A DNA stretch of 63,999 nt, counting the filler, from Circinaria calcarea (lineage: Eukaryota): the NCBI GenBank assembly GCA_051942165.1. It is 12 parts of 12 records of this genome, joined end to end, with 100 filler letters (N's around TTAATTAATTAA, not from the genome) between each part and the next. Parts side by side here need not be neighbours in the genome. Positions count along the whole stretch, not along the records: positions 59,026 to 63,999 come from JAVECS010002097.1; 11 more parts are not named here. One strand, given 5' to 3'. Numbering within the stretch: the stretch's first letter is position 1; every line of letters starts with the position of its first letter. The notes under the pieces were generated by a model that had not been told where the DNA came from, searched no databases, and saw only the letters and a program-made list of their open reading frames with translations. Below, in pieces: positions 10,752-63,999 of the stretch. A program made the translations under genes and the position numbers.

Positions 10752-13700
10752 AGCGCAGCAACAGCAGACTGAGAAAAGATTTGCTGAGGTTGGTCAGCCC
10801 TCAAGCGAAATCCAACAAGTCGGCTTGTTTGCCGTTTACGACTTCGGACTCGTTTGCCTCGACCACCAAGATCGCTCGATCCTTTTTCATGAAATCTGGC
10901 AAGATGAAGAGCCTACACCGGAAGGAGAAGAGCGGGGATAGCGTGCTCATACTGGCAGACGAGGGCGCATCTGTCGTCGCGGCACCGACACACCAAGTCA
11001 ACCGTCCAGTTCGAGTGCCATTGGAAAATCGGAATGGGACTGAGGCTCCGTATAGAGCATCCGACGAGCTAGCAACAATGGATAGAATCTTCGAGGAGGA
11101 TTACACGTCAGCGGAATCAAGGTCGGCCAAGCGAAATTCAATGTTTGTAGGACTACCCGACTATCGTGTGGACTCGGACTCGATTTCGGGTTTCATCGAT
11201 CCAAAATTCTTCCTGCAAAAGGCATTCGGTATCACCTTGGAAGAGAACACCGACAAGGGAACGTTCCCGATGTTGGAAACCATCGACTCGAACACATCAA
11301 GCAATTCGACCGGCTCGACAGCACAAGATCAACCATCAGCGGTTACAACAGTAAAAGATCGAAGGCCCAGGATTCACGTCTCAATACCCGATAAAAAAAA
11401 GACACAGACGTTGGCATCGAATCGGAATTTCGATGGTAACGCTCGCGGAACGCCCAACACCGTGTCACCACCGTCGACCACCACGATGCATCAACGGCGT
11501 TTTAACGGTGTCGCGACCGCACGACATTCCATCATCTCCCCACTTTCGGTAATGGAGATGCCCAAGCCACGAAGGCCCTTCTCCGCCGTCTCCCTAGAGG
11601 GAATGACGGCACACATGCCCGAAAGTACAGCGGCGATTCCGAAATCGCGGTCGACGTCTTCGGAAGATTCCCGCAACGAACCGTACGAACGCTCGTCCGG
11701 CCATAGCCCGCGATCGTCCATGTCGAGTATGGGATCGGAGCCGACGTCGTATAAGCAGCAGCAGCAGCGGCAGCAGGAGCAGCAGCAGGAGCAGGAGAGC
11801 GGAGGGAACAGTGTTCCTAGCCTAGCGCCGGCGTTAAAGGGAGCAGCTGGGCCCGACAGGCATGGTCCTAGCCCGTCGCCCAGGCACATACGAAGCCAAG
11901 CCTCGGTTCCAGGTCCAGGGACCACTCCACCTCGGAGCCTGAAAACGCAGAGCAGCGCCATCTCCCTCAACGGCCCCGCTGCCGTCGATACAAACAAACC
12001 TCTGCCACCGGAACCCGGCCAGGTGAATGTCGCACCGCTCAACGTCGTCGGCGCATCGCCATCGCCATCGAGCACGATTACGGTACGGCAGCGCGTGGCC
12101 ACGATGGAATCGGGATGCTTCGTAAGCAGCAACAGTAGCGTCACCCGCCGGTCGTCCAAAGCATCGACGCTGAAGAGCAAGTACACCCCAAAGGACTTGG
12201 ATGCCCTCGACGACGCCTTTCAACGCAACATGCCGCTCAAGCACCAGACATCGCGATCGTACGCTAGCAACTCCACCCCCACACTTAGTGAGGTGACCCT
12301 GGCGCTCGAGAATCAACTTGACACGATCAAGGAAGACTCTCCACAGCATTCGGTAATGGTGCCAAGCGTCTACGATCCTCTCCAGATCAGTCGGGGGCCT
12401 ATGCGAATGGAACCATCGCGGCGGGCACCGTATCCACCAGCTCAGACGGGGTCACCGGCGCAAGAACCGAGAAGAGGGGCGGGGTCCTATCATCGCTCTG
12501 GATCTCCCATGCGTGAACCCCGAAGGGTACCACCTCCTTCAGCGCGTACCGTCTCGCCTGCACGCGAAGCGAGAAAAGCTCCGTCGCCTTCGATTCACGC
12601 CAGTTCCCCAACGTTCGACAAATACGAAGCACCGCCGCGGAAGCGGGTCGTGAAGAAAGCCGCCAGCAGCAATCATGTGGCCACGCAACTGAGGGCGTCG
12701 GACCATACTCACCGGCGGTCATCAACGGTTGTGCACGGTTCGAGTGCGAAAGCCAACCGGATCCTTGGCAAGGATGGTGCTGTCACCCCGGTTCGGATAG
12801 AGCGCAAGGAAAGCATGGAGTCCAACTGGACTCCGAACGAGTCGCCTCAGGTCTATACCACCTCGACAAGCCCTACAGAGGGAACCCACACGCCCGAGAG
12901 TGAGCTCTCAGTACCCGACGCCCACTTTGAGGAAATCCGTAAAAGGTTGGAACTTCTGAGTCCAAAAGATGATCCGTCCTTGACCTTTCTTGCTTTCCAC
13001 CAAATGAATGCATCCAGAGCGTCCGTCAAACTACCAGTCGGCCAGGATAAGATCGGCCATATATTCATGAAGACCGATCTTCATTCTACACACAGTCCGT
13101 CCGTTGAGCACAAGATTGAAATTCCTAATTTCATCGCAGAATTGGAAGCTACCCGCAGTTCTTCACCTGTGGAGCTTGAAGACACGCAACGACCGCCTCC
13201 TCCGGCTGTCGTATCTGAGAAAATCCCCTTGGTGGAGACGGTAGAATGTCCGAATGAAAGCAACGTCCATCCACTTGAACGTCGCGGTCGAGTAGAAATA
13301 TTACCACCTCCGCCCGACCCACCGGCCGTGAAACCACGTTCCATACACCATTCCAGATCGGTAAAAGCCCGCTCATTGGCATCCCTGGCCATGTCGGAAA
13401 TCCCGGAACTCTACGCTGAATTACCTTCTCCGAAAGGGGTTAACCGACCCTCCATGACGGCCGAGGAAGTCGAACAGCTTATCTCTGCTGATGCCGCCGA
13501 ACGTGTCTTGCTTCGTATCCTACAAAGTCTCGAGAATCTCAAAGATTTGTTTGCTGCGGCAACCGTTAGCAGAGGGTTCTATCGTACCTTCAAGCGCCAT
13601 GAGCTTTCCCTTGTGAAAAATGCTCTTTGGTGCATGTCACCAGCCGCTTGGGAGTTGCGCGAAATGAGCGTACCAAGTGGCTTCATCGACTACTCTCCTT

Positions 13701-15140
13701 GTCTGTACCTTCAGCATTACACCACAGACCTGTACACGTTGATTGAGTTGAAATCCATGATGCTGGAGCATTGCAAGTCTTTCTTGCGTCCGGATACCAT
13801 CAAGGGTCTTGCAGGCGAAACCGATCGATCTCCGCTCATAGATGACGCATTTTGGCGGGTATGGACCTTTTGTCGGATTTTCGGTTGCCGAAAAGGTCGA
13901 GAAGACGACATTGTCGGTCAGATGGATTGGCTGAAAGGTGGGAAACTTGCCAAGCAGCAAAGCAACGATACTAGTACGCTGGCCATCAACGACGGGGTCG
14001 CTATGAACAGTGTGTTGTTCAACCCACCCAAAGGATTCTCAAAGGGCAACCGGGGTGGATTGACCGCTGAAGAATTGTACGACATGAGCGAGATTTGGAC
14101 TTGTCTTGGGGTGCTGGTCAGAGGGTATCAAGGGTTCCATCGCGAAGCTCGCGAGTTTGGCATTTTTGAGAGGGCAAATATCGCTCCCGGCGATGTTGTC
14201 AAAGAGAATGCCATTTTAGGTATGTGTTCTAGACTACTTAGGAAGCGTTGCAGCTAATTTGGAAACAGAGGAATGGACATATCACCTGCTCACTCTCGCT
14301 CCTGCCACTGTGCTTGACGCAAACTCTCCCTCCACGCCGACATCAAGTACATTTGCCCATGCCCGCTCTCAAGGCTATACAATCTGGTCTCCCCCTTCGT
14401 GTGGCGCGTCCCGTTCCACATTTCTCAAAGAAGCCGTTTCCCGTGTCTACCATGAGAAGGTGTTTTTGGGACGACCGGCTCTTTCAACAACCAGTTCCTT
14501 GTCCAACTTACACCAAACGACCTCTTCGCCCTCTCCATCCTCCTTTTCAAGTAGTCCTCTTGACTCGTCTCTTGCATCTCGGCAACGTTGCGCCATGCAC
14601 GCGGCCGAGATCCGTGCAAAGAGACAAGATCCCACTTACAACCAATTACCCGTATCCGAGGATCGTCCTATGAGTAACTACCCGGACGTGCTTGCGAAAC
14701 TAGATGCCCAAGCCTCTTCTGCAAGTTCGGCGCCCCCGGTGCCCAAGCTTCCCGGTCTAGCTTCCAAGATCCTTCGTCGTCAACTTGGCTCCAAAAAGGA
14801 CAAGGACAGATCCTCTTCCTCCAAGAAGTATGCATTTTCCGGAAAGTCGTCGAAAAACTCGTCTCAAACCTCTCTCTCATCTGTGGAAAAACATCATTTG
14901 CAGCCGTACGCCCATGGGCACATTTATCCTCATCAGATCCCTTCGGGCCCGCAAGTACGCGACCCGGTCGATTTGGCCGTTGAAAGACTGATAGCGATGG
15001 GGTATGACGAGGGAAGGGCGAAAAAGGCTCTTGCGGAGACGGATTCGGGGAATAGTGTTGATTTTGAGCGGGCGGTGGCATTGTTGAAAAAGGGCGAGGA
15101 GAGGAGGAAGTTGCAGGGGAGGCTGGATAAGATGGGCTGA
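10752..15140 (+). CDS. Large S/P-rich protein with F-box-like region and C-terminal UBA-like domain, probably 5'-truncated
   Basis: Frame open from the contig start. Intron 14220-14268 (gtatgt...gctaat...acag) joins ENAIL-EEWTYHLL. Motif VLLRILQSLENLKDLFAAATVSRGFY is F-box-like; C-terminal DLAVERLIAMGYDEGRAKKALAETD...FERAVALL is UBA-like. Confidence 0.8.
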
Positions 15141-17479: not shown

Positions 17480-18591
17480 GAACTCAACAGCGGTAGACCT
17501 ACTGATTTCGGCCTTTTTGGAAAGGAATGCACGAGAAAGACTCATGGTACCAGATGGAGATTCTTTCTGAGATATATACTATTGTTCATACTACAGCTGC
17601 TTATTGTTATTTCCCTTGGAGATTTTGCGAGCTGACCGAGTTAATCTTCAAGGCAATATCCCCTAGTAGTGCAGGGGTAGAGGCTCTGTACAATGATATG
17701 ATAGCGGTTATATATCATGACAATACATATAAATCTACATGTACATACATAGAAGACGTAGTGTGGAGCGAGTAACATGGCGCAAGACCTTCCAGAAAGG
17801 CAACCGCTTAGAATAGGACAAATGCGTTTTAATGCAACTTGGGTAGGATTAGTACTCGGATTGGACCGGGGGATCCAACTCTCGGGTCTCTCGTTTCAGG
17901 GCAAAGTTTAAATACCCGCGGCTTAGTGCCCAACACCTCACATCATAGGGAAAAGTTGCGGACCGTAACCTTATTCCTAATGAGACCTAATTCAGAATGC
18001 CTCTTTGATGTCCTCTACCAATTCAGTTCATTGCCATGTAGTGTTGCCCAGTGAGCATTTGTAAAAATACATGTCCCTACTGTGGTATTCGACCCAGCCC
18101 TTAGGTTGACTAGACAGTTGACATGTTCCACTTCTTTGTTCGTCATGGCGTGGGAAGGTTTTCACATGAATCTCCACACATGGGAGCCATGGGAATGGGA
18201 GTTCTATGCTCTAGTTTGCATGGGGATTCCTGGGTGCCTACTCATTTCGGATTGGCACTGCTTTGGTCCATGCGTGGTTTCTGCGTCTGATGAGAAGTGG
18301 GTATTCTGTCAGAAACTCATCTTCACTCGGATGATTCTTCATCTGTTGTTGGTTCCCTCTACCTATGTATATGACTTTGTGCTCGAATTCCATAGACAAG
18401 CGTCATTATCTCTTGATTTCAATAACTCAGCTATAGGCTTTACGTCCTTGTCGAGGCTCCTCTTCCTGTGTTACAGTTGGCAACAAGAGTACAACCCTTC
18501 AATTTTCAGTGCATCTACACCGGGTATTTTGTTCACTGAACAATCTTCGTAGCCATCCCCATTTTACACCACCACTGGATCGCTTGTAGGT

Positions 18592-20085
18592 ATGGCCAAA
18601 CAGCAGGAAGCCGGTAACGACCCATTCAAGCTTCCACCCAAAGCCCCCCCTCGGATGAGAACATACGGCGGCGCATATTCTCGAGAATGCGAAGATATCA
18701 GCCGGGAGGACGACCAGAAAACACAGAAGAAATATTGGAAAATTCGGGCAAGGCAAGAGGAGAAGAGAGAAGCGAAAGGGGAAGAGGATAGAAGGGCAGT
18801 GGAGAGGAGACAGGAGACTGGGCGGAAATCTGGTGTGGAAATAAGATCCCCTAGAGGAAAGCTGAAAGATAAACTCAGGGGAGCTGTTGAAGACTCGAAG
18901 ACGGGTGCAAAGCTTGCAAAGAACAGCGCCAAGTATGTATACGAAAATTCTATGCTGGCTGTGGAGGAGACAGGGATCAAAGTCAAGAACAGTGTACAAA
19001 AAGGGGTCGTGGAGATGGGTAGGAAGCTCTCCAAGGGAGACGTGAGCCCGGGGATGGCCGATAACGTAGCGGGATTCGACATGGAATTCTCAGCCAGTCC
19101 TAGGACGGATGCTCGTCCTGAGAGCCCTGGCCCCGTTCCCGCCCGTAAACTCTCACTTCCCGAGGTGTTATGGCGTGAAGCGAAGAGGTTCAAAGAAGCC
19201 TTGGTCGACTTACCCCATCAAGGAATATACTACCATCTGAACAATAATAATCAGAAGCCACGGGCTAACCAGCGCTCCCTCAGTCAGGGAGAACTGCCGC
19301 GTGCACGCACACATGAATCGCTGCCGAGTGACCAAATGACTGGGGAGACATTGTCAATGCCCGGTCAGGACGTGACCTCCTCCCGCAAGATAGGCTATGG
19401 TGAATTTCACCGCCAGATTGGGGAGAGTACTGGGAGAGCGAGACCTGAACCAGGGAGCTCATCGCCAATTGCTCGTTACCACCCAACCCCATCACCCGAC
19501 ATTGGTTATGGGCGAGTGTATTACCACTATGGCGAAAGAGAAACTCGTGCGAGAGCAAGACCTCACATCAATCGTGATGACCCGGCTCCCTCCTCCAGCA
19601 CCGGGTTAATCGATCGCTTGGGCAATAGCTTCGCAATAGTAAGGCCGGAAACGGGAAGCTTGGGGCCTGATCCCTACAATTCCACGGAAGATCTCATTCA
19701 ATCACTTCCCGACTTCAGTACACCACCACCAAGCCCTCCGCCACCGAGCCTTAACAGTCGGTTGTCTGACTGCTCCATCTCTTCGGCTGATCCCTTCCTC
19801 TCCAAACCCGACCTCAGCGAAACAATTCCCGATCCGAGTAGCCCACCGCCAACCCCTAGTACGCCCTTATCCCGGCTTTTGATTCCCTACCGGTACAACC
19901 GTCTTGTCCGTCTTTTCCGCAGTGATGACACTTCTTGTGCTACGGCGACTGATAATCTCCCGATTGGGCAGGATGGTCCCCTCCAAAGAGAGGATTCGTT
20001 GAAGCGTACGCGGGAGCCTTCTGGATCCGGCCCCAGCTCTGCGAAGCCGCCTAGTAAACGGCATGAAGGTGATGACCGGTGCTGA
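18592..20085 (+). CDS. Hypothetical 497-aa protein (basic/charged N-terminus, Pro/Ser-rich disordered C-terminus)
   Basis: Long uninterrupted ATG-initiated ORF; no recognisable domain. Confidence 0.6.
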   Translation: MAKQQEAGNDPFKLPPKAPPRMRTYGGAYSRECEDISREDDQKTQKKYWKIRARQEEKREAKGEEDRRAVERRQETGRKSGVEIRSPRGKLKDKLRGAVEDSKTGAKLAKNSAKYVYENSMLAVEETGIKVKNSVQKGVVEMGRKLSKGDVSPGMADNVAGFDMEFSASPRTDARPESPGPVPARKLSLPEVLWREAKRFKEALVDLPHQGIYYHLNNNNQKPRANQRSLSQGELPRARTHESLPSDQMTGETLSMPGQDVTSSRKIGYGEFHRQIGESTGRARPEPGSSSPIARYHPTPSPDIGYGRVYYHYGERETRARARPHINRDDPAPSSSTGLIDRLGNSFAIVRPETGSLGPDPYNSTEDLIQSLPDFSTPPPSPPPPSLNSRLSDCSISSADPFLSKPDLSETIPDPSSPPPTPSTPLSRLLIPYRYNRLVRLFRSDDTSCATATDNLPIGQDGPLQREDSLKRTREPSGSGPSSAKPPSKRHEGDDRC

Positions 20086-32639: not shown

Positions 32640-33500
32640 ATACTTCGTTACCCAACAGACTGGCATGGAATCGTGCTACTAGGTGGAACGCCATCTTGGC
32701 CGAATCCACGTCCACCGAGTTTGCGTACTTTTTCCTAAAGGTCACTAACTGTTGTCTGGTAGAGCTTTGATCTCCCATGTAGCTCCTTCATCTTGACCAT
32801 TAAAATCCACCGGCCTCCGCATTCACAATCTCCTGAAATTTTGCTCGAATTGCTTCATCAAGAAATAAACCTGCTTGGTCGACAGAAGGATCGTATCGGC
32901 TAGGGTGGACCGAGGACGCGAATAACAGGTCTCCACGGCTCGCTGAGCAAGCCTCCCGCACTCGAACAGCATCGCCTTAGTAAGGGGCGATCAGTTCCAC
33001 TATGTGCACGCGAGTTGCATGCCTGTGTTTTCCGTACGGATATGTACCCTCGACTCTCACCGAATGTACCGCTTCCATTCTTACTATCCAACACCCTTCA
33101 ATGTCTCCAATTCGATACCAGCCAGCGCCCTCTTAACCTAAGCTAATCTCCTCTTTTTTGGCTTTGGCGTCGAGGAAACCACCCGGGGCGGCATGAAATC
33201 GTTGAAAAATGGTAACTAACCAGGAGATGTAACCTCTACGAATGTTTCGAGGATTGTATTCATCGCTATCCAGGGGTAATAAGGTCGATAGCTTTTCTGG
33301 CTTTAGTATAATTCTATCGTTGATGTACTGGAAAAGGATGGTTTTAAGCCAGTTGGCTGAATCGTCTTTATCAGCCACACCGAAGTTATTATGGCATTCG
33401 GAAGCCCAGACTAATAGGATCTTTTCTAGAGCCTCACTCTCCCTTAAGGACTCTTTAAGCGGGTTAGTGGACTCAAAGTCACTATACTCAGCCATGGACG
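32640..33500 (-). pseudogene. Degenerate gene of unknown family
   Basis: The 120-aa ORF at 33133-33495 continues in frame through several TAA/TGA stops; region is TpA-rich. Confidence 0.35.
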
Positions 33501-34048: not shown

Positions 34049-35536
34049 AGGGATCGGGTGAGAAAGGCCATTCTCGCTGTCCCAACTAGACGCCGGTGGG
34101 GTGAAGGGCTTCTGGCTAAAACGCGGGCCCGGCGGGGTGAACGACTTCTCGATAGGTTTACATCTGATCTGCGCCCCGGTCTATATTCGCAAAATCACAC
34201 GCTATACCTGTCAACATGTAAAAGATCTGCCGTGGGAAGCCCAGGACATCCAAGGATAAAGACTGGAGCAGGGGTGATTAGCTTAGGAGCAGGAGGTGTG
34301 GCCTCGAACCTCACATGGATACACCGCCCCCGGAGTCTACTATCCAACACCCTTCAATGTTCCGACATCAATACCAGCCAACGCCCTTCTAACCTAGTCT
34401 TTATATCATGTCCCTTTTTCTCTCAGAATATGCAGGGCCCACTCCGCTTTATTTTCACAGACGCGTTGCACCGCAGCTAATACGCCCGAGGTTTCTTAAT
34501 CGACCCTACATTGGGCCCCTTGCTCTTGTTGCCGATGAAAAAATTTCGTCGTGAAGTGCGGGAAAAACTAGACATGTTTCGCCATGCTAGATAAAAATGA
34601 GTTGCCTTCCTCTTTCGTAAAATATACCTCTTGGGTTTCCGAACTGGGTGCTTCGATTGTTATAACACTCGAAGTGATGACAGAAATCCCATAATATTAA
34701 TTTACTTCAAATTGGACGTAACAGCTAGTTGTAAACTGCTTTAGAGATAAGGGGGGAATGATGTTCACAATTGGTAAAGTCAGTATCAGGATTTTTTGAT
34801 AGGGATGGAGTCGTCGTTGGGAGAAATTGGAATCGCCCTCGTCGAATGGGGCAGTGTCCATATTATCAACAAAAAAGTTACCAACTCCCAAAAGCATAGC
34901 TATCGGCTGGATGACAGACCTCCAGGCGTACGGGAAGGCGTGTCTGCAAAGGAGATCATCCTTCTTATCTGGTTATCATGGTTGCAGTTTAAAGTTTGAC
35001 ATGATTCGCACAGCGGAGTCAACGGCGAACTTGAAGTTGAAGTGTATTTGCTTTTTACTAAATGCAGATACATAGGCCAAGGGAAGATCGATGCCTCGGA
35101 TGATAAGAACAGCAAAGTGAGCAGCTACTTGAAATCACTTGCCCTTCCACCTGACTGAGTACATCCGAGGGTAAATGGTGCCTGGGACCATGAGCACAAT
35201 AAAGTCGTAGGTCATTTGGTTCAAGTGTCTTCATTCTATTAACTGTCGTGTCATATATAATTTACCGTATTTGAGGTTGACTTCCTTTTTCAACACGGGA
35301 GGTGATCGGGTTTAACCCTCGGATTGGAGACCGTATGTCCTTCATAAGCGGTAACATTCTTAAAAATTTATTGACATTTCCTGAATTGTGCTGCTCTTAC
35401 AATCTTTCGATCAGGTTATCGAATCTAATTGCAGACTCATATCTTCCACAGCTTGTATATTAGTGTTGTCAGTAACTTCTTCTAACTAGTACTTTCAGTA
35501 ACATCCTCATCAACAGCACGGTCACCAACATTCGCA

Positions 35537-39115: not shown

Positions 39116-40407
39116 CTATGTTCTTGGTTTGCTAGATAAGGGAATCGGAGGTGGCACTATGGCCGAACCGGGTTCAAACTGAACTTTCTTAGGTGGTGGC
39201 GGAGGAGGCACTTTCTTCTGGCCTCCACTAGCAAACAGTGCTTGTCCAACAGGGCTTGCCGCGGGAGGTGAAACCTCGTAAGAAGAAGGCGTGCTACTCG
39301 TAAGTCCAGGACTGCTTATCCTATCCGTAACTCCATATTTTGTATTCAAATTATTGGCACCTTGCCATCCAGCGGCGACTTGGTCACCGTGCCGTTCTCG
39401 AAAGTTATTGGCAGTTGAGGCAGCGTTTCTTGCATCAGCCAGAGATACGGAAGAAGGATTGTTTCGGAAAGTGTTGACGGTCTTCAATGCAGCTTGTTTC
39501 TGAGCAAAGGATGTACCTACGGGAGAAGACTGTGGCGGAGTTGAAGAAAAAGCAGACAACTTGGAGAATCTTCCTTGGAGCTCGTTCATGCCTGCCCCTT
39601 GGTTGGAAGGAGAGCTAGGTGATGCAGCAACGCCATGCAGACTTTGGTGATCCCGTCCCGAACTGACAGCCTCTGGTTCTTTTCCGATACCTAGCCCGGG
39701 TACAGATATACCAGCACTGCTCAGCCTGCTAAGAGCGCTTTGATTCAAGTAGCTTTTCTGCGGCGGCGGTTCAACCGATTTGGTAGTCTGTAGTGAATCG
39801 ATGCTAGTAGTTGTAGAGTTTTGTCTTGGTGGAAGCCTTGGAGGTAATGAGGGCTTGGGCTTGGCGCTTGTAAGAGATCCGATGGTGATGGATTCTGAAT
39901 TTGTCTCTACGCGTCTTGCTGGTGGCTTTGGTAGACTCCGAGGTGACAGTCCAGTGGTATCAACCCTGTAAGGTCCTGAAGGCGGTGGAGGTTCCTGCGC
40001 AGTCCCTCCTTCTCTCGTAGACATTTCTTCAATGTCTCTTTCTTCCAGGGCTCCGGTGTGACCATAACTTATAGGTATTCTTGATCCATCCTTATCCGAC
40101 ATTGTATGACTTGGTCTTACAGCCCCACCATAGGTTGGAATATGTTTGGGAGGCGGTCCAAAGGCACTTGGGTCTTTGAGAGCTGCGAGGGGCCGGGAGT
40201 GGTGACTTTGCGCATTCTGTATTGCATTGGAGCTCTCTCCTTTGCCCATCAGTCCTGCCTAAAGATAGTTAGGTCCACAGCAGTTCTTGGGAAAGACCAT
40301 ACACCAACCGCTCTGCCCTTGATATCACCCCGCCAACTCTCCTTTTTCCTATCCTTCCCATGCAAGCCAGCTTTTGCGGCATCCCTCACACCCCTCACCT
40401 TATCCAT
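39116..40407 (-). CDS. Proline-rich cytoskeleton-associated protein (AIM3-like annotation in Pezizomycotina)
   Basis: Exon 1 from ATG 40407 (MDKVRG...KESWRGDIKG), intron ending ctaac...ctttag, then AGLMGKGE...SRPLAALKDPSAFGPPPKH...KPSLPPRLPPR...GTSFAQKQAAL...NNFRERHGDQVAAG...PPPIPLSSKPRT*. Confidence 0.8.
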
Positions 40408-41176: not shown

Positions 41177-42823
41177 TTAACGATTTGCAGCAAAATCCGT
41201 AACTTCAGTAGCATGCGGCGGTTCCTCACTTAGCGCCTGCAGTGCCCTTGAGACCTCGTCACAACCTGGCTGTGAGGGTGGCAGAGGCACATCTTCAGGA
41301 TTGTGTGGTTGGGGTGTTCTCATGTTGCTGCCTTCTCCGGAGGTAGTAATTGGTGAGTCAACGGTAGGTACGTCCTCGCTGTTCGCGCTTGAATCATCTG
41401 CTACTTGCTCGTCGCTTGGACCTGGAAGGTGTGACAAACTAGTGGCACTGGCGTGGGATGAATTCTCTCCATCAGGTAGACTCTGTACTATGGAGCTATC
41501 AGAATCAGCTAGCTCGGCGTCGTCCTGGTCGAGTACAGGGTCAAGAGCTCGCCTGCTGGCAATTGGATGTCCAAGGTCGTTGAGGCCGCGAAGGTAATCA
41601 ACCAGTGCCGGACGAGAACGCTCGGCGACTTGAATGAATTCATGAAATGGATCTGCCGGAAAGCTCATGGCTCGCCGAGATGTAAGGCTGGCTGCTCGCG
41701 CCTCTGAGCTTCTACTATCAACGGCCGTCGTGGCTTGACTTGTCCTGGTCGAACTGCTGATGCGGCTTCGCTGTCGTTCTTCGTGAGCTCCTACTAACGA
41801 CCTAGACCCACGACCCCTAAAGGACGGTTGGGTTGGTAGCTGATTTGAACTAAGATGAGCACCTGCAAAGGCAATATGTCCTGAAGGGCTATGGGTCCGT
41901 AGAGAAGCTACCGAAGATGCCGGAGAAGTTACTACTTCTGCAAGGAGATTTCCAAGGTGATGTTGAGGTATATTCGAGTTATGAAGCGAGTCGTGGGATG
42001 ACTGGTTAGAAAGCCTTCCTGCACCTGTGTAGCAATGGCAGTTCTCATCGCAATAACATGTCCGTGCAGCAAGGTGCTTTTTCTTGTTAGTGGCTTCAGA
42101 ACGCTTGACATATAGTCGGTCCTTTTTGGTACGAACGGCATCCACCAGCTCGTTAGTGGGCTCATCCGGCTGAGCAGTTTCAGCTCTAGGCTGGGACGAC
42201 AAATCAACAGTTTGGCTGTTTTGAGTATCAGGATGTATCGAGGGTGACGGTGTTGCTCGTGCAGATCCATCTCGCAGTTGCCTTCTAACGTCCGGTTGCA
42301 TTGGGCCTTCTACATGATCCATAGATGATTCTGCTTGGTCAGATACATCTGAGGGAGATAGAAGGTCCGGCTGTCGCCCAAGAATGCGATAAAATGGTTT
42401 TTTGATCAGGCCGATTAGTTTTTTGGCATTGCCCTTGGTATTGAAACGCCGCCTTAGTCGTTTATCAGTCCCCTCAACAAGATTACCTCTAGGGTGAGTG
42501 TCTTGCGCCGGGTCCGTATCCAAATTGATTGGCGGTGATTTTGGTGTTACAGTAGCGCCGTGGGCATGAGGTTGCGTAACAATAATAGATGGAGGCTCCC
42601 TAGCCCGCAATCCGTTTTCATTTCCCTGGGATGATGCTTCGTTCCGAGGAGTAGTCTGATTCCTCTGATCGTCCAAGGCTCCACTGCTCAACACTGTATG
42701 ATCACGATGATCACTGCAAGGCGGAAGATGGTTAGGCGAGCTTGACCTTACAGTGTTCTGACCCGAAGTCGTCAAGACAGATGCCAAGGTCGTCTGTGTC
42801 GAATTGCGTCCCAAGCCAAACAT
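41177..42823 (-). CDS. Hypothetical 548-aa S/P/D-rich disordered protein with CxCxxxCxC motif
   Basis: Long ATG-initiated ORF containing RTCYCDENCHC; 5' end lies 43 nt from the contig break, so it may be partial. Confidence 0.7.
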   Translation of the reverse strand: MFGLGRNSTQTTLASVLTTSGQNTVRSSSPNHLPPCSDHRDHTVLSSGALDDQRNQTTPRNEASSQGNENGLRAREPPSIIVTQPHAHGATVTPKSPPINLDTDPAQDTHPRGNLVEGTDKRLRRRFNTKGNAKKLIGLIKKPFYRILGRQPDLLSPSDVSDQAESSMDHVEGPMQPDVRRQLRDGSARATPSPSIHPDTQNSQTVDLSSQPRAETAQPDEPTNELVDAVRTKKDRLYVKRSEATNKKKHLAARTCYCDENCHCYTGAGRLSNQSSHDSLHNSNIPQHHLGNLLAEVVTSPASSVASLRTHSPSGHIAFAGAHLSSNQLPTQPSFRGRGSRSLVGAHEERQRSRISSSTRTSQATTAVDSRSSEARAASLTSRRAMSFPADPFHEFIQVAERSRPALVDYLRGLNDLGHPIASRRALDPVLDQDDAELADSDSSIVQSLPDGENSSHASATSLSHLPGPSDEQVADDSSANSEDVPTVDSPITTSGEGSNMRTPQPHNPEDVPLPPSQPGCDEVSRALQALSEEPPHATEVTDFAANR

Positions 42824-45800
42824 TACATGCTCGCATCTCTCACAATTGAAGCGTATGTGCCGACTCNNNNNNNNNNNNNNNNNNNNNNNNNNNNNNNNNN
42901 NNNNNNNNNNTTAATTAATTAANNNNNNNNNNNNNNNNNNNNNNNNNNNNNNNNNNNNNNNNNNNNGTGGGGAGGATTATCAGGAGGGAGGAAGGAGGGG
43001 GGAAAGCGAAAGAAAAGGGAAGCGATCCGTTCAAAAATGTTAAATGTCCACAAAAAAAACCCCAAAAAAAGGGGCCATGGGGCTTTTCAATACCGGCAAT
43101 TGCTTCATATCAACCACTTACACCTTACACGAAATCGAGGACCCCTTGCCAAAAGTATAAACATTGCCCCCAGGTGGAGCGAATCCCCCCCTCCCTTTTC
43201 GCTCTTGAAACCGAAAGAACGAACCGAAAGGAAAACCGGTCCCTTGTCACCGAAGTTGCCAAGTCACCATGCAAGAAAAACGGCGGATGGAATTTGCTTC
43301 ATTACGAGCTATTTTGCCCCGGAAGCCAGGTTTTTTTCAAGGCTCTCTTGGTTAACTAGCTGACCTGCTCCCCTTCCTCCACATGACACGGTCTCCGCTT
43401 TGGGCCTTGGGCTTTGGCTGCGTGCCCTGTCCATGCACAGCTTGCTCGTGTCGACGATGGGGCTTCAGACCGCCCCAATCTCCGCGCGATAGAAAGCGGT
43501 CGGCAAGCAAACCTCGGCGGCTTGGAAGGAGGGCAAGTCAGGCCTGCTGGTTGCTGGGGCTCTGCTCCTTTTAGCGTGAAAGGTGAAGGGGAGGTTCTTA
43601 CCGACATGGTAGAATTCATGCGGCGGGAAGGGGAGGGGAGGCACATCAATAATAGGAAGAGAAGATATCAATTACAATATATCGAGTAGGTACAGGGTTT
43701 GCCCTCAAACGGGGTTACTAAAACTTCTACATTCAAGCACAGGATGCTTTCTATGAGCGTTGCATTCCAGGACTTATTGAGCTTCGCGAAATAAAGGGGG
43801 CACGAAGCGTCGGCGAACGGGGCCCCAGCACTTGTTCGAAAGATACACCATTGAATCCAACAACAGGGATGCTGTGAGATTTTGCTTGTTTGGTCGGAAC
43901 CGATCGTGAGCGGGTTCTAACAAGACTGACGTGAAGTTTGCAAGCGATGCGAACCGCGAAAAAGGGATAGGAGCAAGGGGAGGGAAGGAAAGGGCGATGA
44001 GTGAAAGAGGGTGTGGTAGATTGGAGCTCCCGGTTTGGGGTGTCATGACTCTAGGCAAATAGCTTTCAAGCAGAGAGGTGTATAGTGCAGTGATGTAGTT
44101 GTTCGATAAGACAGCGGCCACAACTGTGGAGGGCCCTGGAATAGTAGGAGAGGAGACCGAAGAGTGGAGAAGGAGGGAAGTGAGGTGAACACTTCATGGG
44201 GCTTGAAAAGACGTGGCTTTAGGACAGGAGACAAAGAGGATGGCGGGCTCTGATAAAGGACAGTTTTGAAAGCCATGGATGCTGATGGTGATACTGCGCG
44301 TGAATCAGTGGCAAGAGAAGTTCCGGAGAGGTAGATGGACGCTAATCGTTGAAATTTCACTCGAGGCCCTTCTCCAACTCATCATTGTTCCGGCTGTTAT
44401 GCAGGTAGTCTCCTCCTTCCCTTCCTTCCGTATCTGCCCACCAAGGACTGGATCCTAGCACATGAAGCAAACGGTTCAAGAGCTGACAGTCACCCCAGGG
44501 GTTGTGTTGCCTACTCATTCTTCAATTCGTGTTAAAGTCCGTCCGGGAGGGCGGCAGGAGTGGAATTCGCTCGAGGTAAAATCCACTGCCTGAGGCGATC
44601 ATGGCGAAGCTTCCGCCCTTTTCTCGTGAGCGTCAATCGTCATTATGTCATGGTATAAGGGGGTAGGCTGTGACAGTAGGCATATCTCGTCGAGGTGTTC
44701 CAATGAGAGAGGACACGCCATGACAGTAATGCAGGCTTTGCTGGCAACTTGTTGAAGGCTGCTGCTCGACCCAGGCTTGTCGATCGCGCTGGACGAGGGC
44801 GAGGGCGAGGGCGAGGTGTCTTTCGAACCGATCCATGACCGAGTCGGCTAAGACCTGACCGGCCGTAGTGGCTGTGTGCATGACACGTACTGTGGGCTTT
44901 GGTGAAATCTCCATGATCAAGATCACATGTAATGGAGTGTGCGCTGTTACACAAGGCGCGGCTACCCCTCATCTGGATTGGGCAAGGGCCATCTACCCAA
45001 TAACACGTGTAGAGGACTTAGTGACCCTGGAGTAGATCCACTTGGACATCAGACGAACCTTTCAACGACGGATGGAATGAAGCAGCGCCAGACCCGTGGA
45101 AGCGGGAATGTGCTTCGTTTCCTTACACGGTCATGCAGTGTCAAGTGTCCAAGTCCACGTAGGCCACGCGTCGAGCATTGGAGCTTCTGCACGCTTGCCT
45201 CAGGAGAGGAAAGCCTTGCAGCCTCACCTTCAAAGGCCGGTTCGGATCGTGATTGAAATCGACAGCGAGCGGTAACGCATTGCTGCCCGAGGGAAGCCAT
45301 GAATGTAGAGGAGCAGACGCTTGAATGGAGACTTCGAGTCCGTCTACGTATCAGTAAACGATTGCCACATTGAAAGGTATATCTAATTCAAAGCCCGCAT
45401 CATCAAATATACGCCGACAGAATTATCAATCCCAGCGACAACGTTTGAGGAATCCGTGGAATCCGTGGAATCCGTGGCGAAACTTGGCTCGAGACACATT
45501 CTGCCAGTTCCACTCGAGTCAACAGGCACAAATGTATCTTCTCAGGCACGCGCCAAGGCGAGGAACCAAAGCTTCGTGGATCTGCAATCCCAGTACGAGA
45601 TGGAGGAGACCGTCGAGTAAGCACCGCTCTTGGCCACTCGGCCTGCATCCTTTTCTCGACCAAGAATCCAATGTGCTTCTGCGAAGCACCGCCACCACCG
45701 ACTATAGGGCGATTGCGTAATTCTCCCATTGGCGCGAATGATGGTCTTCCATCTCGAGTGGACGGTCACTGGCAGCTCTTTGCTTGAGTCGAAGCCGGGG

Positions 45801-46297
45801 CCAACGCTCGATCTGACATCAACCACCGGCTACTACTTCGGGTTCCTGCATTAATCCAGCCTCGAACAATTCGGACTCGAATCCATAACTCGAGAGTTCA
45901 GACCCCATTGCGAGAGAGATGATGGCGTGGAGTAAAGAAAGACACGGCGATGGTGTTCCGCGCTCTCTGTGCGGAGGAGAGCATCCCAGCGTTGGTGCTA
46001 AGGATGGGGTTCACCGGTCCATTAGCGTCAACAAAGCACGACGGTTTCTTAGGGCAGATTCCAAGGCGAGACTTGACCGGTGAAGGTGGGGAGTAAGACG
46101 GTGTGTTCGGCCTGTTCCACTTTGCCCGTTCAAATATGAGGGTAAGGCATTGCTTCAACCGGATGTGATATAGCCTTATCTATCAACATTTCCCAAACAT
46201 TTCTGGTAAGCTCCGCCTCATCAAGGCAATCGATTCCCCGCCATCATCCAGCATCGGCTTGGTTCAGTATTTTTAGACCTTTCTTATTCTACTGAAC

Positions 46298-48223
46298 ATG
46301 CTCTCAGCACGCATCAAAGCACGCCGCGATCAGCATAGGTCGGGACGCAACCGAATTCGTCGAGCGGCCTCATCTTCGAACATCGAGGTTTCTCAGAACG
46401 GATGGTACATCGAATCGGATCCCTCGAGGAGACGGGATTTCGGGTCAACTTCGTCAGACTTATCCTATCCGAACTCAGGCAATACCCGTGGACAAATCCC
46501 AACGCCTAGTGGTACATCTTATAGTCCCTTGGATTCGAACATTTCAGAATACCAATCGATATACGGCCCATTGACCTCGATCCCCTCTCAGCAATCTACC
46601 ACTTCCTCGCAGGGACTAGGCTCGGAAATCTTGGGCGAGCATGATGCAGACCTCTATCCAGCAACACAGCAATCGTTAACTGAAGTTTCGGTCCCTCACA
46701 CTGACACGTTTCATTTCTCGCTCAACGAGGATCCCCCGAATTGTTTGCCATCTCAAAGTGACTTAACCGTGATGAGCCTATACCAATCTTGGTTGATTCC
46801 GAAAATAGCACCGCACGTTCTGCAAAATCACGGACAGCCAACAGTGGCTGGTTATCAAGTAGATCGGGCATACGTCGGGTATGGGCCACAACTGGAAGAG
46901 AATCTGTCTGCATATAATCAGATCCAGCCACTACCGGACGGAGCACCTACATATTACCACATTTCCCAGGTTCCTCCCGGAGAACCATGGACGCCATGGA
47001 ATGTACACCATGAGCAAGTCACGAATCAGTCTGCTTTCGACAATTATACCGCTTTCCTTGAGCAACAAGTGCATCCTCCAACCGCCACCCTTCATGATCA
47101 ATATGTACCACCACAGTCCTTTTGGGGCACCGAAAATGACGGACAGTACTTCGCTGCTTCGGCAACAGAAACTATTGAGTTGCCTTCATCAGATGATCCG
47201 GTGGGTCCTCCCATTGGTTTCGAGCCCGGTGGTGCTCAACAAGTCGACGAGCAAAGCAGACTGGATAACGCAAAAGGCGGAAGGCGGCACGGGCCATTGC
47301 ATCCTGTATCTGCAAAGAATGCTTGTAAGATGCGAAAAGAACATGTGTGCATGTCGTGTCGGATGTTAAGGGAAGCGGTAGGACTGATATACTCATTCCA
47401 TCAAGGCAAAAGTACTGATGAGTTACCTTGCCATAGTGTGTTTTCGACGGCGACGAAGCTGTTTGTCGGCGTTGCAAGCACAAGTGTAGCATTCCTGGAC
47501 GGTGGAGTTGCGATCGAACGCAGCTATCGGAGTTGGTGCCTGTTTTTCTGCCAAGTATTCTTTTTGACCACCCCACCCACGATGCCCTCGAGCGTTTCCT
47601 CCAACGCCATATTACTGGTTACGTCGAGGAAAATCCTATTTCAGTACAGTTAACACCTGGGTTTGGAAGGCCTCTGGTTATCCAAGCCATTGAAGCTCAT
47701 CCAAATGGCACTTGGATGCTATACTCAAGGCAATTGAGACGGAAAACCCATACAGACAAGTATGAAGCGATGAGAGTACCCTCACCGTCCCTGGTAATCA
47801 TATTGCAGGATGAGGGAAGTGTGCGAAAGTGGAGAGGAGAACTCGAGAATTATCTCCATACAATGCTAATGGAAAACTTTGAAAATATTGCTCGGAAGTG
47901 CTTTCCCGGCGGCAAAGAGTCCAACAGAATTTCGAGGAGCATCATGATGCTGTTGTATGAGTACTACCTAAATTGCCCCAACAAGGTAGGGTGAGTAATG
48001 CGTGAGGGTCTGATGTCACACTGACTTAGTGCAGGCAAAGGATGTGCCGGTTTTGTGTTTGGAGCTCATCATGCTCACCTTTATGATGAGCCATGCGTTC
48101 ACGCTCGTGGAAGAAACTAGACGCACAACCTGGCAACAACTCCACCATCGGCCAGACCAACCCTATGGAATGCGTACGTCGGCAAGATATTTGAATAAGC
48201 AATTGAAATACCTCCTATCAACC
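46298..48223 (+). CDS. Zn(II)2Cys6-like transcription factor, 3'-truncated
   Basis: Intron 47378-47436 splits the cluster: CMSCRMLREA|CVFDGDEAVCRRCKHKCSIPGRWSCDR, preceded by GGRRHGPL...ACKMR; second intron about 47985-48034. Confidence 0.8.
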
Positions 48224-58925: not shown

Positions 58926-59164
58926 NNNNNNNNNNNNNNNNNNNNNNNNNNNNNNNNNNNNNNNNNNNNTTAATTAATTAANNNNNNNNNNNNNNNNNNN
59001 NNNNNNNNNNNNNNNNNNNNNNNNNCCCTACGGGGGAACTATACACCGAGGTCACGAGGTGTTGGCTTAGCGAGAAAGGTTTTCCTCGCGAAGCGTTACA
59101 CGAGAACTCTTTAGCAATAATTCATACACTGATGCGAACCAACTAAGCTCATTATCACACAATT

Positions 59165-59260
59165 CACCGACCCTTATCGTAAGATCATTATACTATTCGT
59201 AAAGGATCCTTACACCGACCCCTATCGTAAGATCATTATACTATTCGTAAAGGATCCTTA
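59165..59260. repeat. 48-nt tandem duplication (2 copies, 1 mismatch)
   Basis: caccgaccc(t/c)tatcgtaagatcattatactattcgtaaaggatcctta at 59165-59212 and 59213-59260. Confidence 0.95.
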
Positions 59261-59417
59261 CATTTACAGAACGCGGCCGAACTTATTAAAGAGTTTGATA
59301 AACAAGAAGAAAGAGAGGAAACAACGGCTTTATTATAGGATTTGGCGTTGCTTTTATTATGGCTTATTAGCTTTATTATACGCCTTCGGGGCGAAGGCAA
59401 TTTCTATTTAGCTGGTA

Positions 59418-60195
59418 ATTATTATGATCATACCGCAGGCTACGCCTACGGTTTAGGGATTAGCGGGAAGTTAGCGCCATTTAGGTAATATATCCCGAGG
59501 ATTTTCCCCGTAGGGGAAAATCATCCTTCACTTCCAATTCAATAGTACTTTTGCACGCAGTGCAACAGCTCGGCTCCCTGGTTCCGCCGCTTGGCCTACT
59601 AGGGTACGGCATCGCGCCATAACAATGATATAGGTCCGTTGTGGATGTATAATTGTTGCACGAAGTGCAAAGTACCATTGTATGAAGTGAAGGATGATTT
59701 TCTATCATGGGGAAAACCCCCGAAATATACTACGGAAAACCCGCTAATTTCACCACTATCCCTGTTATGGCGTCAACACCATACTAGGCACTAGATCCGG
59801 ACGGGACTAGTGCGAAGCCGGACTAACCTTAACCCGATGCTCATGGGCGCTCAAGATATAAGTATAGATAAGCAGGACCGGTGCTTATAAGTGCTTAGGG
59901 TATGAGCATAGATGAGTAGAACCAGTACTCGTGGATGCTCAGGGCATGAACATAGATGAGTAGGACTTTATATAAATAGGTTGTTCCTCGTTCTTTAGAA
60001 TAACATGTTTATAGAACAATAACAAGTTCAATATACTCCTTTTGTAATGAGCCTAGGGCAACAGTTCAACTACACCCTATATAACCGTGCTATTACCAAT
60101 CGGGACTTATCATATTCCTCAATAAGCCCCAAGGATTGCAGCGCCCTTACAATCCCCTATGGGGAAGGCTTCGCCTGCCGTATAACCATAACAAC
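59418..60195. mobile_element. Foldback / long inverted-repeat element (arms ~150 nt) interrupted by a solo LTR
   Basis: Left arm 59418-59567 is the imperfect reverse complement of 59654-59762 + 60157-60195, with an exact core gaaaatcatccttcacttc / gaagtgaaggatgattttc. Confidence 0.75.
59763..60151 (+). mobile_element. Solo LTR (389 bp) of an LTR retrotransposon
   Basis: TG...CA termini with imperfect terminal IR (tgttatggcg / cgcccttaca); perfect 5-bp TSD ATCCC (59758-59762, 60152-60156); TATA box tatataaatagg near 59969; internal degenerate repeats. Confidence 0.9.
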
Positions 60196-60600
60196 AATGG
60201 AGTTATGTAAAGCCATGCCGGGGGAGCCTTGCAGACGAGGTATCGATTGGCTGGGAGCACTGTTATTCCGGGCCTACCCAACAATATCATGAAACTGCTA
60301 AAACCCCCAATACATACTTCTTTATATAGCAAAGCAGCATAGCAGTTAGGAATACGATATCGAGACCCGTTCTGATTTCCCTCTATATGTGCACTATACT
60401 GTAGCAGTCAGTTCATGCTATATACCTCCTGATTCTTCGCTATTTGGGCCACCGTCACTTTTCTTCGACAGCATCTTTGCCGATACATCAGGAGCATAGC
60501 GGAGCACCCTATATCCTTCACATTTCCACCAATAAGTCGTGTAGCAGCACTCACCGTACTACTTTCAACTTAGCCTTATTTTCTTATTTTTATACATAAT

Positions 60601-61692
60601 TTAATTATTGGATAAAGAATTAGAAAATATATTTAATTTACGTCGTGATTGTTTTTTATCATCAACCACTCCAATGCTTTCAGCTTTTCCCACACCGTTT
60701 TGACGGGATATCTTTTTGTTAGCCTTACGAGCCGTGGGTAAGAATTTGTCCAGCACGCTATGTCGCCGCTGCTCAACGTCCTCATCCTTCTGGCTCCAGT
60801 CATTCTGATCGTCAATCTGAAAGATAGTATGTCTCCGTGGGCTCTCACTCTCGATTCTAAAGTCCATTGGCTTCCAGTGCCCTACCGGCCCAGGTCCCAC
60901 ACTCCGTCTGTTCACCTTCTCTCCAGACGACTTCTTTGAAGACCACAATTTTCCCAAGCCCTTCTGGTGAAAGTGATCGACGTTGCGAACCGGGTCTACC
61001 TGGGCTGCTTGAGCGGCAGCCTGAGCCCGCGTTAGCTGAAAATTATTCCTCGCGGGCGCCTGTTGCGTGGTCGGTGTTGCACGATCACGGCCTTCGGTGA
61101 AGGACGCGGTCGACAGCCGTCGGTCGGGTAAAGTGGAGCTCCCGAGCACTGTCGAAGGCCGACGATCTGCGGTACCGGAGACTCGACGATCCGGCATCAT
61201 GGAGACTCGGTGATCTGGCATGATAGAAGCCCGACGATCCGGCAGAATAGATGCTCGACGATCTGGAGCTACCGAAGCGCGGCGTTCCGGAGTCAAAATA
61301 GTCGACTCCATAGCTGATAGTGATAGAGGGTGAATCGTCACATTTTCCGGTAGTTCGGCTGTAGCTGTGCTCATGAAATCGGACGCGGCAAACTGCGGTA
61401 CATGGCGATATCCCCGGGTAGGTGCAGTGGGAGGCCTGTCATTTTCCGGAAATGCCTGATGACTTCTGCCTTTTTCCCGCACCTTAAAATCCTCCAGTGC
61501 TCGGTACAGCTCGTCTGGATCAAGTGGTTTCCCCGCTGTGGTGGTCTGCCCGAGTTTTGTGGCATTCCGCAATCGGTGGATGTTCGAGGAAACGGGAATT
61601 ACAGGCTGAGCAAAAGATATTTTAGCAAGCTGGCTCAAGCTTGTGACATCGTAACTCACATTCTGTGGTGAGAGTATTTCGCGCGAAGTCAT
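60601..61692 (-). CDS. Hypothetical protein with tandem RRxS repeat array
   Basis: ORF of ~360 aa (first ATG 61692; may have upstream exons) containing YRHVPQFAASDF and 24-nt repeats encoding PDRRASIL-type units. Confidence 0.7.
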   Translation of the reverse strand: MTSREILSPQNVSYDVTSLSQLAKISFAQPVIPVSSNIHRLRNATKLGQTTTAGKPLDPDELYRALEDFKVREKGRSHQAFPENDRPPTAPTRGYRHVPQFAASDFMSTATAELPENVTIHPLSLSAMESTILTPERRASVAPDRRASILPDRRASIMPDHRVSMMPDRRVSGTADRRPSTVLGSSTLPDRRLSTASFTEGRDRATPTTQQAPARNNFQLTRAQAAAQAAQVDPVRNVDHFHQKGLGKLWSSKKSSGEKVNRRSVGPGPVGHWKPMDFRIESESPRRHTIFQIDDQNDWSQKDEDVEQRRHSVLDKFLPTARKANKKISRQNGVGKAESIGVVDDKKQSRRKLNIFSNSLSNN

Positions 61693-63999
61693 GACTTCAA
61701 TTGGATGGGACAAGGTTCCTCAGGACAGCTGAGAAACTCCACGAGCTTTACTTGATAGGTGAACAATGGGATGGAGAAGGGAATCGAAAGTAGCAGGCCA
61801 GGGACTTTATAGCGTCCAAGAGAGGCCGGGCATAGCATGACGGAAGAATATTCAGCTTGTAAAGCATCTTGCCTGCGTGAGTAGACTTTGGGAGGCGTTG
61901 TTGTCAATTGCGGGAACGTAGGCTCGTGATCAGGTGCCGTAAGGTACCGAGAGTAAGAGTGGGATAGTCCATCCTACGGGAGATTGAGGTCTGGTAAGAG
62001 CGGGGCAAACCCGGGGGATAGAAGCAGGGAACGAGGGAAGGCTCCGCATGCTCCCATCGAGTTAAAAGTCAGTTCCTGAGCATTAGCCGTGGGACGGGGC
62101 ATAGTCGAGTTGCGACTGCATAAAGCCTCGCACTTGCTCACACCCCATGACGCTCGTCTAGGGCTCACATGAGATGGGAGGTTCATTTCCCGTGGTTGGT
62201 GTCGAAATCTTAGTTTCGGCCGGGCGGCAACATCTTCGAAACCACGGGGTCGAGTAGCTGCCTCAGACCTGCTCGCATTCCAAGCGTGTTTAATCCCAGA
62301 CTAGGAAGGCCGACAGAGGAGAGCATCAGGGATGGGAACAGACTCCTGCGGTACTTCGATGCCAGTCCATGGCACCTTGTGCCGGTCCACGAGGTCGACA
62401 AACGAAGTGAATCGGTGCCTCTACGACAGCCGGATCAGAGGCTTTGGAGGGACCATCTTACAGGATCTCGGGGAAGCACAGTGACTTCTGTGTCCGTCGA
62501 TTGTACCTGCATTAGCCGGTTCCTGTCCGAGCCAACCCACACATTACTCTACTCCGCACGGAAGAACAGCACTTCGCACGTGCGGGCTGCCGCCCTGCAG
62601 TGTGTCCCTTTGTTTTGGCGCCTGAGCTCAGACTAGGAGCACATCAGCTTGGGTCGGTCATTTTGTACGAGCAATTGTTCCTAAGGCGAGCGCATGGTCC
62701 CGAGGCCTGCCGTCTTCTCTGTGGTAGAGAATGGATTCTCCTCTGAAGCTGTGACTAGGTAGATAGTGATCCAAAGTCAATAGGGCGATTATGATAAAAT
62801 CTAATCGTTTTGGTGAGGCCCCAGGCAAACATTAGCGGCCCAATTTATCGTCAGGGCCATACCATAGCTGATACATGGGCTTCCAACCAAACGCTGAATG
62901 ATCAAATGTTCTCCTGCCCTTATCATCGCTTACTACCGTCAAGCACGTCCATTCCAGGCAGGGACCTCAGCTTGCATGCTTCCGCCAGGTAATTCTTCGG
63001 TGGAGCTTATTACAACTCACCAAGGCAGTCTTTGGGAGGGGTTATTCCTCGTGCTCTTTCCTCCCCTTCGGCTAAGGGGGAAGAACAACCACCCGAATCG
63101 TCCACATGTCTGCCCTACCCCATCCTGCCCAAAATTCTGAGAGGAGCGCGTTTTCAGGGACCATGAGATAAAACTGCAATGTCCTTTTCAGCAAGACGGC
63201 AGACGCCACTTGGATGCGCAATTTAGCCTTGGAGAGAGTGTATTATCTATATCTTTCGCCGTTTCAATCCCATCATCCATGGCGACGCATAACACGAGTC
63301 GGCAAGTCGGAGTATCTCTACATTGACGATGTTGGACCACTCATCTCTCATCGCCTATCCATAAATCCCTGGTCTCAGCAAGCTTCCGGCCACGCTTCTT
63401 GACCGTGTTGTGCGGTCAGATGAGGTGAGGCAAGGCGGGGCGGCAGTGGCTGAAGGTGCACGCATCAATGATCGTCATGCCCAAAGAAACTTCCAAAGGA
63501 TGAAGTCGACGAAAAAGAAAACCACGAGGTCCGTGGAGCTCCCAAGTCTCCCTGCGACACGCATGCCATACACTCGTCAGCTTCTATGTCTCGGCCGGGT
63601 CTCAAGGAGCGCTCTCGTTCGGCACCAATGGTGACTTCAGTTCTCCGAGGGGACCGCAATGATGGCCAGCGCAGGGAACCTAACCCTACCACGTCCGAGC
63701 TCGTTACCAGCGCTGGCATCGATCTCGACGATGGCCAGCCATGCTCGTACTTACAGTCTGATCTCCTAGAGCCGAGCAAAATGATACAAGTCCCGAGTAC
63801 GTTTGGTGCTGTAAGTTGACCTGCGGCTAACACCAAGGCACCTTTCTGTCTACAAACTATTTCTAGTCAAGCCACAGTCTAGCTTAAGGGGCGGTGTATC
63901 TCCATCAAATTGGCAGTGGATAACTAATTTCGAGTGAATGATCCAGGCCGAACATCTCAAAATGATGCCTGAGGTGAACTTGGCTGTGATAGGCCAACG

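Follow-up and report, generated by a model that had tools for sequence, protein, structure and literature searches.

In fungi, the LTRs of GalEa Copia elements read TGT...CA, measure 138-311 bp and are flanked by a 5-bp duplication (PMC5445492), and the termini of Gypsy elements read TGTNR (PMC2836005). In a lichen fungus, retrotransposons cluster in segments affected by RIP (PMC12542154). Ginger elements likewise have TGTNR termini, with inverted ends of ~50-180 bp and duplications of 4-5 bp (PMC2836005). Among rolling-circle elements of the Helitron2 type, Fusarium FoHeli1 and FoHeli2 start, after TNAT, with a T followed by a hairpin with a 5-bp-scale stem and a GAA loop (PMC5148889, section 6). 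Short multiple 5' termini and self-insertion are reported for Helitron2 in the same source (PMC5148889), and its 3' features are a second inverted repeat of 12-16 nt and an ATTTT end before A or T (PMC5148889; also PMC11417382). In Adineta, inverted pseudo-LTRs of ~180-220 bp carry palindromes at their junction (PMC3846280), and fungal Penelope-like elements carry ribozymes (PMC4209133). Mini-hairpins of the C-GNA-G type are exceptionally stable and nuclease-resistant in DNA (PMC13037366). These descriptions, and the comparisons made with them below, refer to the available excerpts of the cited papers.

Here we describe a fold-back region of Circinaria calcarea that is rich in such mini-hairpins. 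The window, that is, the whole stretch of DNA analysed (63,999 nt), is made up of 12 contigs, 11 of ~5.3 kb and a last one of 4974 nt (59026-63999), joined by N-linkers with a spacer that has stops in all frames. Because 59026 is the start of a contig, the repeats are cut off on their left side. The original prediction took the region for the end or origin of a mobile element with a selected single-stranded DNA (ssDNA) structure. We favour, with confidence a little above even, a nest of LTR-type remnants that includes two diverged solo-LTR-like copies in opposite orientation. The features are collected in the table below, where L and R denote the units forming the left and right arms.

Table. 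Features of the fold-back region and its surroundings (positions in the window; R is interrupted by the nested LTR)
Feature	Position	Strand	Basis
Repeat remnant at contig start; mini-hairpins at 59026 and 59087	59026-59262	.	Hairpin and repeat scans
Remnant; end of stop-broken frame (plus strand, stop at 59336); 7-bp hairpin at 59382-59398	59263-59419	.	Frame and hairpin scans
Unit L (left arm), 148 nt, TATTATG...GTGCAACA	59420-59567	+	Arm alignment, end comparison
Hairpin A, GTA loop; stem extendable to 9 bp on minus with one G.T	59437-59447	-	Hairpin scan
Hairpin B, 10-bp stem, GTA loop; broken in right arm	59500-59522	+	Hairpin scan, arm alignment
Hairpin C, 6-bp stem, GCA loop, 2 nt from CA end	59551-59565	+	Hairpin scan
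Part of 86-nt loop; starts at 59624	59568-59624	-	Same first 10 nt as nested LTR
29-nt spacer	59625-59653	.	Sequence inspection
Unit R, first part; inner end TGTTGCAC on plus	59654-59762	-	Arm alignment
Hairpin C', GAA loop on plus, unit R	59656-59670	+	Hairpin scan
Nested solo LTR of 389 bp; TG...CA; three internal repeats of 44 nt	59763-60151	+	Ends and exact 5-bp duplication
Hairpin D, TAT loop, right arm only	60153		Hairpin scan, arm alignment
Unit R, second part; starts TGTTATGG on minus at 60193	60157-60193	-	Hairpin A', end comparison
Hairpin A', GAA loop on minus, unit R	60166-60176	-	Hairpin scan
Host gene, outside the element	60601-61719	-	89% identity to Circinaria calcarea hypothetical protein

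Once the nested LTR is excised, two arms of ~150 nt pair around an 86-nt loop, as had been predicted: 59418-59567 aligns with 59654-59762 plus 60157-60195, with 111 of 151 columns identical. Within the unit bounds (59420-59567 on the left), 110 of 149 columns are identical and four are gaps, and the identity of L and R is 74%. The homology stops at TG/CA on all four ends, both outer (59420 and 60193) and inner (59567 and 59654). Alignments anchored at the junctions were at chance level past the outer ends, where 277 of 1000 random controls score as well, and past the inner ends (549 of 600 controls), and an extension of the fold-back beyond TG/CA was rejected on these scores. Since the homology stops so sharply at the four ends, each arm is a unit, of 148 nt for L and 146 nt for R with the LTR excised. 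R has the ends TGTT...AACA, and L has the same ends except for one G-to-A change at its start, which is one transition away from TGTTATG. The 8-mer TGTTATGG has five exact occurrences in the window, three of which lie at unit boundaries here (59763 on plus, 60193 and 59624 on minus). The starts of L and R show a modest likeness to the start of the nested LTR (269 and 99 of 13279 background 22-mers, respectively, score as well). As DNA, L folds at z = -4.49 (0 of 200 shuffles).

We compared the flanks of the units for traces of target duplication. R is flanked by ATAAT and ACAAT, identical at four of five positions with one C/T transition (0.8% of random pairs). The flanks of L, GTAAT and GCTCG, agree at one of five positions, without a 5-bp duplication. 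For the fold-back as a whole, GTAAT and ACAAT have three identical positions and two transitions (1.8% of random pairs), with one of four identical when 4 bp are taken; L together with 57 nt of the spacer has the flanks GTAAT and ATGAT, again three identical and two transitions. Eight boundary choices were tried and all four flanks resemble one another, so the flank test favours, without proving, a separate insertion of R.

The predicted solo LTR in the right arm was confirmed by its TG...CA ends and by ATCCC on both sides (59758-59762 and 60152-60156), an exact 5-bp duplication. It contains no C-GNA-G hairpin with a stem of at least 3 bp. In the spacer, the 22 nt read from 59624 on the minus strand, anchored to the start of the nested LTR, gave a score reached by 0 of 13279 background 22-mers; alignment of the whole loop to the nested LTR was marginal (71 of 2648). 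Given this likeness, an LTR related to the nested one has probably left its truncated start at 59568-59624. Alternatively, this stretch may be the 3' part of a 205-nt unit, 59420-59624.

To the left of L, a 48-nt tandem duplication (59165-59262) ends with CCTTACA, as the nested LTR does. The end of 59026-59262 is weakly like that of the nested LTR (595 of 13279 background 22-mers score as well), and this stretch is a weak candidate for an LTR remnant. The broken frame 59027-59308 (94 residues, three stops being read as X) matched none of 47 candidates and had no Pfam family in a protein comparison that is a weak search. By eye, we take this frame to resemble the last helix of a chromodomain, an unsupported likeness. 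On the minus strand, 59270-59370 has a TATA-like stretch, then a pyrimidine tract, plus three short TAATAA-type repeats; by eye, this is either LTR-like or C-to-T-decayed sequence. Its opposite strand is the end of the broken ORF.

The six mini-hairpins named in the original prediction were all found in place (59551, 59656, 59502 and 59087 on plus; 59437 and 60166 on minus), the one named at 59502 having in fact a 10-bp stem that starts at 59500. Over the 776 nt of 59026-60195 with the LTR excised, a region picked after the fact, C-GNA-G hairpins with stems of at least 3 bp numbered 7 versus 0.29 expected, a large margin, and none of 2000 dinucleotide shuffles reached 7. With stems of at least 4 bp, there were 5 versus 0.07 expected (0 of 2000 shuffles), and the left arm alone had 3 versus 0.02 (0 of 2000). 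Triloop hairpins of any loop were likewise enriched (11 versus 2.5), and 59026-60200 contained 9 minimal mini-hairpins of 7 bases, compared with 1.1 expected from the remaining window.

The GNA loops had been described as strand-specific and as keeping the same strand in both arms. The matched strand was found in both surviving pairs (2/2), but the pairs themselves use opposite strands, the outer pair A (59437, 60166) lying on minus and the inner pair C (59551, 59656) on plus. Four hairpin positions are comparable between the arms, and two of the four are not common to both: B (59500) lacks a GNA counterpart in the right arm, and D (60153) lacks any in the left. In both flipped pairs, A and C, the G and the A of the loop are kept and the middle base differs. 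Judged from these 2/2 flips (n = 2), this suggests that GNA is under some constraint.

The inner hairpins also share a plus frame in which each reads Cys-x-x-Cys, at a distance of 35 codons (59552-59668). A coding explanation was rejected, this reading being a by-product of the palindrome; it may explain why many viral contigs match the hairpin motif. Word matching in open-licence literature found no paper on GNA-type loops in fungal LTRs, and the available part of PMC13535494 has nothing on hairpins.

Within the unit bounds, L and R differ by 35 substitutions: 18 transitions, 11 complement swaps and 6 other transversions, of which 4 are the loop flips. Many of the arm mismatches had been described as base-for-complement changes and not RIP-type transitions. 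This view was overstated, as transitions are the largest class; complement swaps are present, but they are grouped in blocks and outnumbered. One example given for such swaps, taa/att at 59416-59418, falls outside the significant homology between the arms. Thirteen of the 17 transversions have another one no more than 2 nt away (null 6.3; 104 of 20000), which indicates block events and not independent changes. The block 59448-59453 pairs leftwards in L, where it completes hairpin A, and rightwards in R, where it completes hairpin D, and the block 59477-59484 copies an 8-mer located 23 nt away in the right arm. Template switching is described as giving fully inverted loops and multi-base changes (PMC8794818). 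By analogy, we infer that template switching occurred at L/R. Most simply, the loop would have been inverted within a short perfect palindrome, giving the difference in loop orientation; template switching would account for the block-wise complement swaps too.

We searched for homologues of the units using several patterns. The 19-mer common to both arms matched 1 viral and 21 metagenome loci, none of the 22 being similar beyond 22 nt. The inner hairpin pattern matched 22 viral loci, of which 0 were homologous (best profile E 0.056), a unit-start pattern matched six loci (0/6 homologous), and a longer degenerate pattern matched 0 loci. These DNA pattern collections are mostly prokaryotic with few fungal genomes, and diverged copies escape an exact match, so a single-copy unit does not follow from the blanks. 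A profile search of the window with two sequences (L and R) detected no further copy, and Rfam gave 0 matches.

The host gene at 60601-61719 (minus) is the sole ORF of at least 150 aa in the contig 59026-63999, so the prediction that no enzyme is encoded there stands as far as tested. Its protein, with KAL9123393.1 as the Circinaria calcarea counterpart, has five relatives and no Pfam family, and, judging from its sequence identity, the host of the repeats is a lichen-forming ascomycete. Within this ORF, a 24-nt tandem repeat at 61160-61290 gives 8-residue Pro-Asp-Arg-Arg repeats. The first 1.2 kb of the contig has a weakly RIP-like dinucleotide signature, from which most of the remaining contig differs. 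Pfam matches in the remaining contigs are fungal-type, and 7 of 16 ORFs have no family. Open frames of 380-1167 aa that are Pfam-blank at E 0.001 were found at 10754-14254, 41177-42865, 46277-47650, 18553-20082 and 39119-40258. A 59-nt direct repeat (33082-33140 and 34338-34396; 85% identity, 1256 nt apart) lies in a weakly RIP-like contig. GC content is 0.15 at 10001-10500, near a contig end, and this AT-rich stretch is probably heavily mutated repeat DNA. At 45674-45690, a lone hairpin has a 7-bp stem and, on the minus strand, a GCA loop. As the window contains 0 tRNA genes, there is no sign of tRNA-targeted clustering.

In the nest of LTR-type remnants that we favour, the arms would be two diverged copies of one ~147-nt TG...CA element, 86 nt apart and in opposite orientation, and this element would most likely be a solo LTR. 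A different LTR, of 389 bp, would later have interrupted the right copy, and most of the spacer would consist of the start of yet another LTR, in truncated form. Because the two copies ended up in opposite orientation, the long fold-back would be a by-product, whereas the C-GNA-G mini-hairpins would be a property of the unit itself. Both the LTR identity of the units and their independent insertion are interpretations of the sequence. They are consistent with the proven solo LTR inside R and the probable related LTR start in the spacer, with TG/CA at four ends, with unit ends that read TGTT or its one-transition variant, and with the flanks of R. On the other hand, the searches described above gave no further copy, and hence no full-length element that would link the unit to gag-pol. 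A duplication of its own is missing from L, the boundaries were chosen from eight, and the fold-back as a whole also scores three identities and two transitions. The GalEa hairpin-site motif was not seen beside L, nor were a primer site or a polypurine tract evident there by eye, although a solo copy would not be expected to adjoin either of the latter. As for the nested LTR, which is the only certain one, it has no C-GNA-G hairpin with a stem of at least 3 bp, its start is matched modestly by those of L and R, and the flips that keep G and A in both loops are left unexplained. Speculatively, the hairpins might form on single-stranded cDNA during reverse transcription and protect or present its ends. 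Such a role is conceivable because C-GNA-G hairpins are very stable and nuclease-resistant in DNA, but the loop orientation differs between the copies and the nested LTR does without them.

The same fold-back could be one old non-autonomous cut-and-paste element, Ginger2/Tdd-like or a MITE, with 147-nt inverted ends starting TGTTA, an 86-nt core and arms that drifted after insertion. We regard this as unlikely. TGTNR outer ends with long inverted repeats are indeed found, and the outer flanks of the whole fold-back might suit a decayed duplication, but the inner ends are equally sharp TG...CA, the arms are better conserved inside than outside, an LTR start lies in the core and the flipped loops are left unexplained; in addition, the single fungal case named in the excerpt of PMC2836005 is a vestige in Malassezia. 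The hairpins themselves, with their C-GNA-G excess, could instead belong to Helitron2-type (HUH, rolling-circle) ends, in which the inner end of R would be a 5' terminus like that of FoHeli1/2, the inversion would come from self-insertion or clustered short 5' duplications, and the transposase would read the GNA hairpins on ssDNA. Position 59654 has a 5' T and a hairpin after TNAT and is the only such site on either strand of the window, in a test made after the FoHeli layout was known (PMC5148889). The arms are best conserved between hairpin C and ATTTT (44 of 52 columns versus 63-79% elsewhere), and this ATTTT ends 46 nt past the start of hairpin C'. However, the second inverted repeat of 12-16 nt is absent downstream of 59654, TGTTGCA occurring on the minus strand of the contig only at 59567, which is upstream. 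All three ATTTT sites are followed by C and not by A or T, and the homology continues ~100 nt past ATTTT up to the TG/CA end. No TNAT stands before the inner end of L, whose loop lies on the opposite strand, and no RepHel ORF was found in the contig 59026-63999. We consider these Helitron2-type ends doubtful. Elements that use a tyrosine recombinase (DIRS, Ngaro, Crypton) have a recombinase gene and an internal complementary region or split direct repeats. No tyrosine recombinase ORF was found in the contig 59026-63999, and neither HUH nor tyrosine-recombinase elements would account for TG...CA ends with 5-bp flanks.

The predicted mobile origin and the C-GNA-G excess are supported, but the fold-back departs from what a single ssDNA end or origin would show: the loops lie on both strands, one of the hairpin pairs has been lost, TG...CA ends belong to each arm, an LTR start lies in the spacer and the Helitron2 3' features are missing. 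Alternatively, an undescribed fungal element would have long inverted ends that keep DNA-specific C-GNA-G hairpins on matched strands, the outer pair on one and the inner pair on the other, both ends being read as ssDNA. It would be a HUH family, new or derived from Helitron2, or else an LTR element with hairpin-shaped, protected cDNA ends; we give this only an outside chance. The mismatches offer another view, because 13 of the 18 transitions allow G.U wobble pairing on the minus strand, which also folds more strongly as RNA (-188 versus -168 kcal/mol). A local inverted duplication of repeat DNA might thus have been kept or exploited as a minus-strand hairpin RNA, a source of small RNA. A one-strand C-to-T bias is, however, also produced by RIP or deamination, GNA triloops are a DNA motif, and a local duplication is not expected to stop exactly at TG/CA ends, so that we find this explanation decidedly improbable. 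The least probable of all, to the point of being hardly credible, is a head-to-head junction of Penelope-like pseudo-LTRs with built-in palindromes. Its layout is that of the inverted pseudo-LTRs of Adineta (PMC3846280), and the stop-broken frame ends just left of L. Nevertheless, the four hammerhead matches are loose and none has a stem II longer than 1 bp, although decay could hide the core, and Rfam is blank. The weak search gave no reverse transcriptase or endonuclease match for the broken frame, the contig has two isolated hexamers and no telomeric repeat array, and TG...CA ends with 5-bp flanks are not among the features given for such elements in the excerpt of PMC3846280.

On the favoured reading, the nest of LTR-type remnants is ordinary repeat debris, and it illustrates how a pair of opposed solo-LTR-like copies can look like a designed fold-back. 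This does not account for the density at which C-GNA-G mini-hairpins occur in a probable LTR. If the loops were conserved across many copies, this would suggest either that the single-stranded cDNA structure of a retroelement is under selection or that lichen fungi harbour a rolling-circle family not yet recognised.

Among known systems, Replitrons provide an HUH-type precedent for terminal hairpins in eukaryotic elements (PMC10288648). Their terminal repeats are short and direct, mostly without target duplication, and the excerpt names them from green lineages and protists (PMC10288648); a Replitron was rejected here because the repeats are long and inverted and the contig has no Rep ORF. In FoHeli1 and FoHeli2, as at 59654 here, TNAT is followed by an initial T and, 1-2 nt after it, by a terminal hairpin whose loop is GAA (PMC5148889). 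Unlike FoHeli, the locus lacks the downstream short inverted repeat, the ATTTT-A/T end and RepHel, and its inverted homology extends over 147 nt instead of 12-16. Ginger2/Tdd and their non-autonomous forms are similar in their TGTNR outer ends, inverted ends of ~150 nt and a possible decayed 5-bp duplication (PMC2836005), but here there are inner TG...CA ends, arms that are 74% alike and less so outside, no transposase and an LTR piece in the core. Compared with GalEa Copia and Gypsy solo LTRs of Pezizomycotina, gag-pol, a primer site, a polypurine tract and the GalEa hairpin site were not seen, and L is without a duplication. The locus resembles them in its TG...CA ends, in a length within 138-311 bp, in nesting in repeat DNA (PMC5445492, PMC2836005) and in the 5-bp flank duplication of the nested LTR (5/5) and the possible one of R (4/5). 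Dense C-GNA-G mini-hairpins, not mentioned for GalEa or Gypsy LTRs in the available text of these papers (PMC5445492, PMC2836005), set it apart. The element is most likely an undescribed member of such LTR remnants, with an unexplained excess of DNA mini-hairpins.
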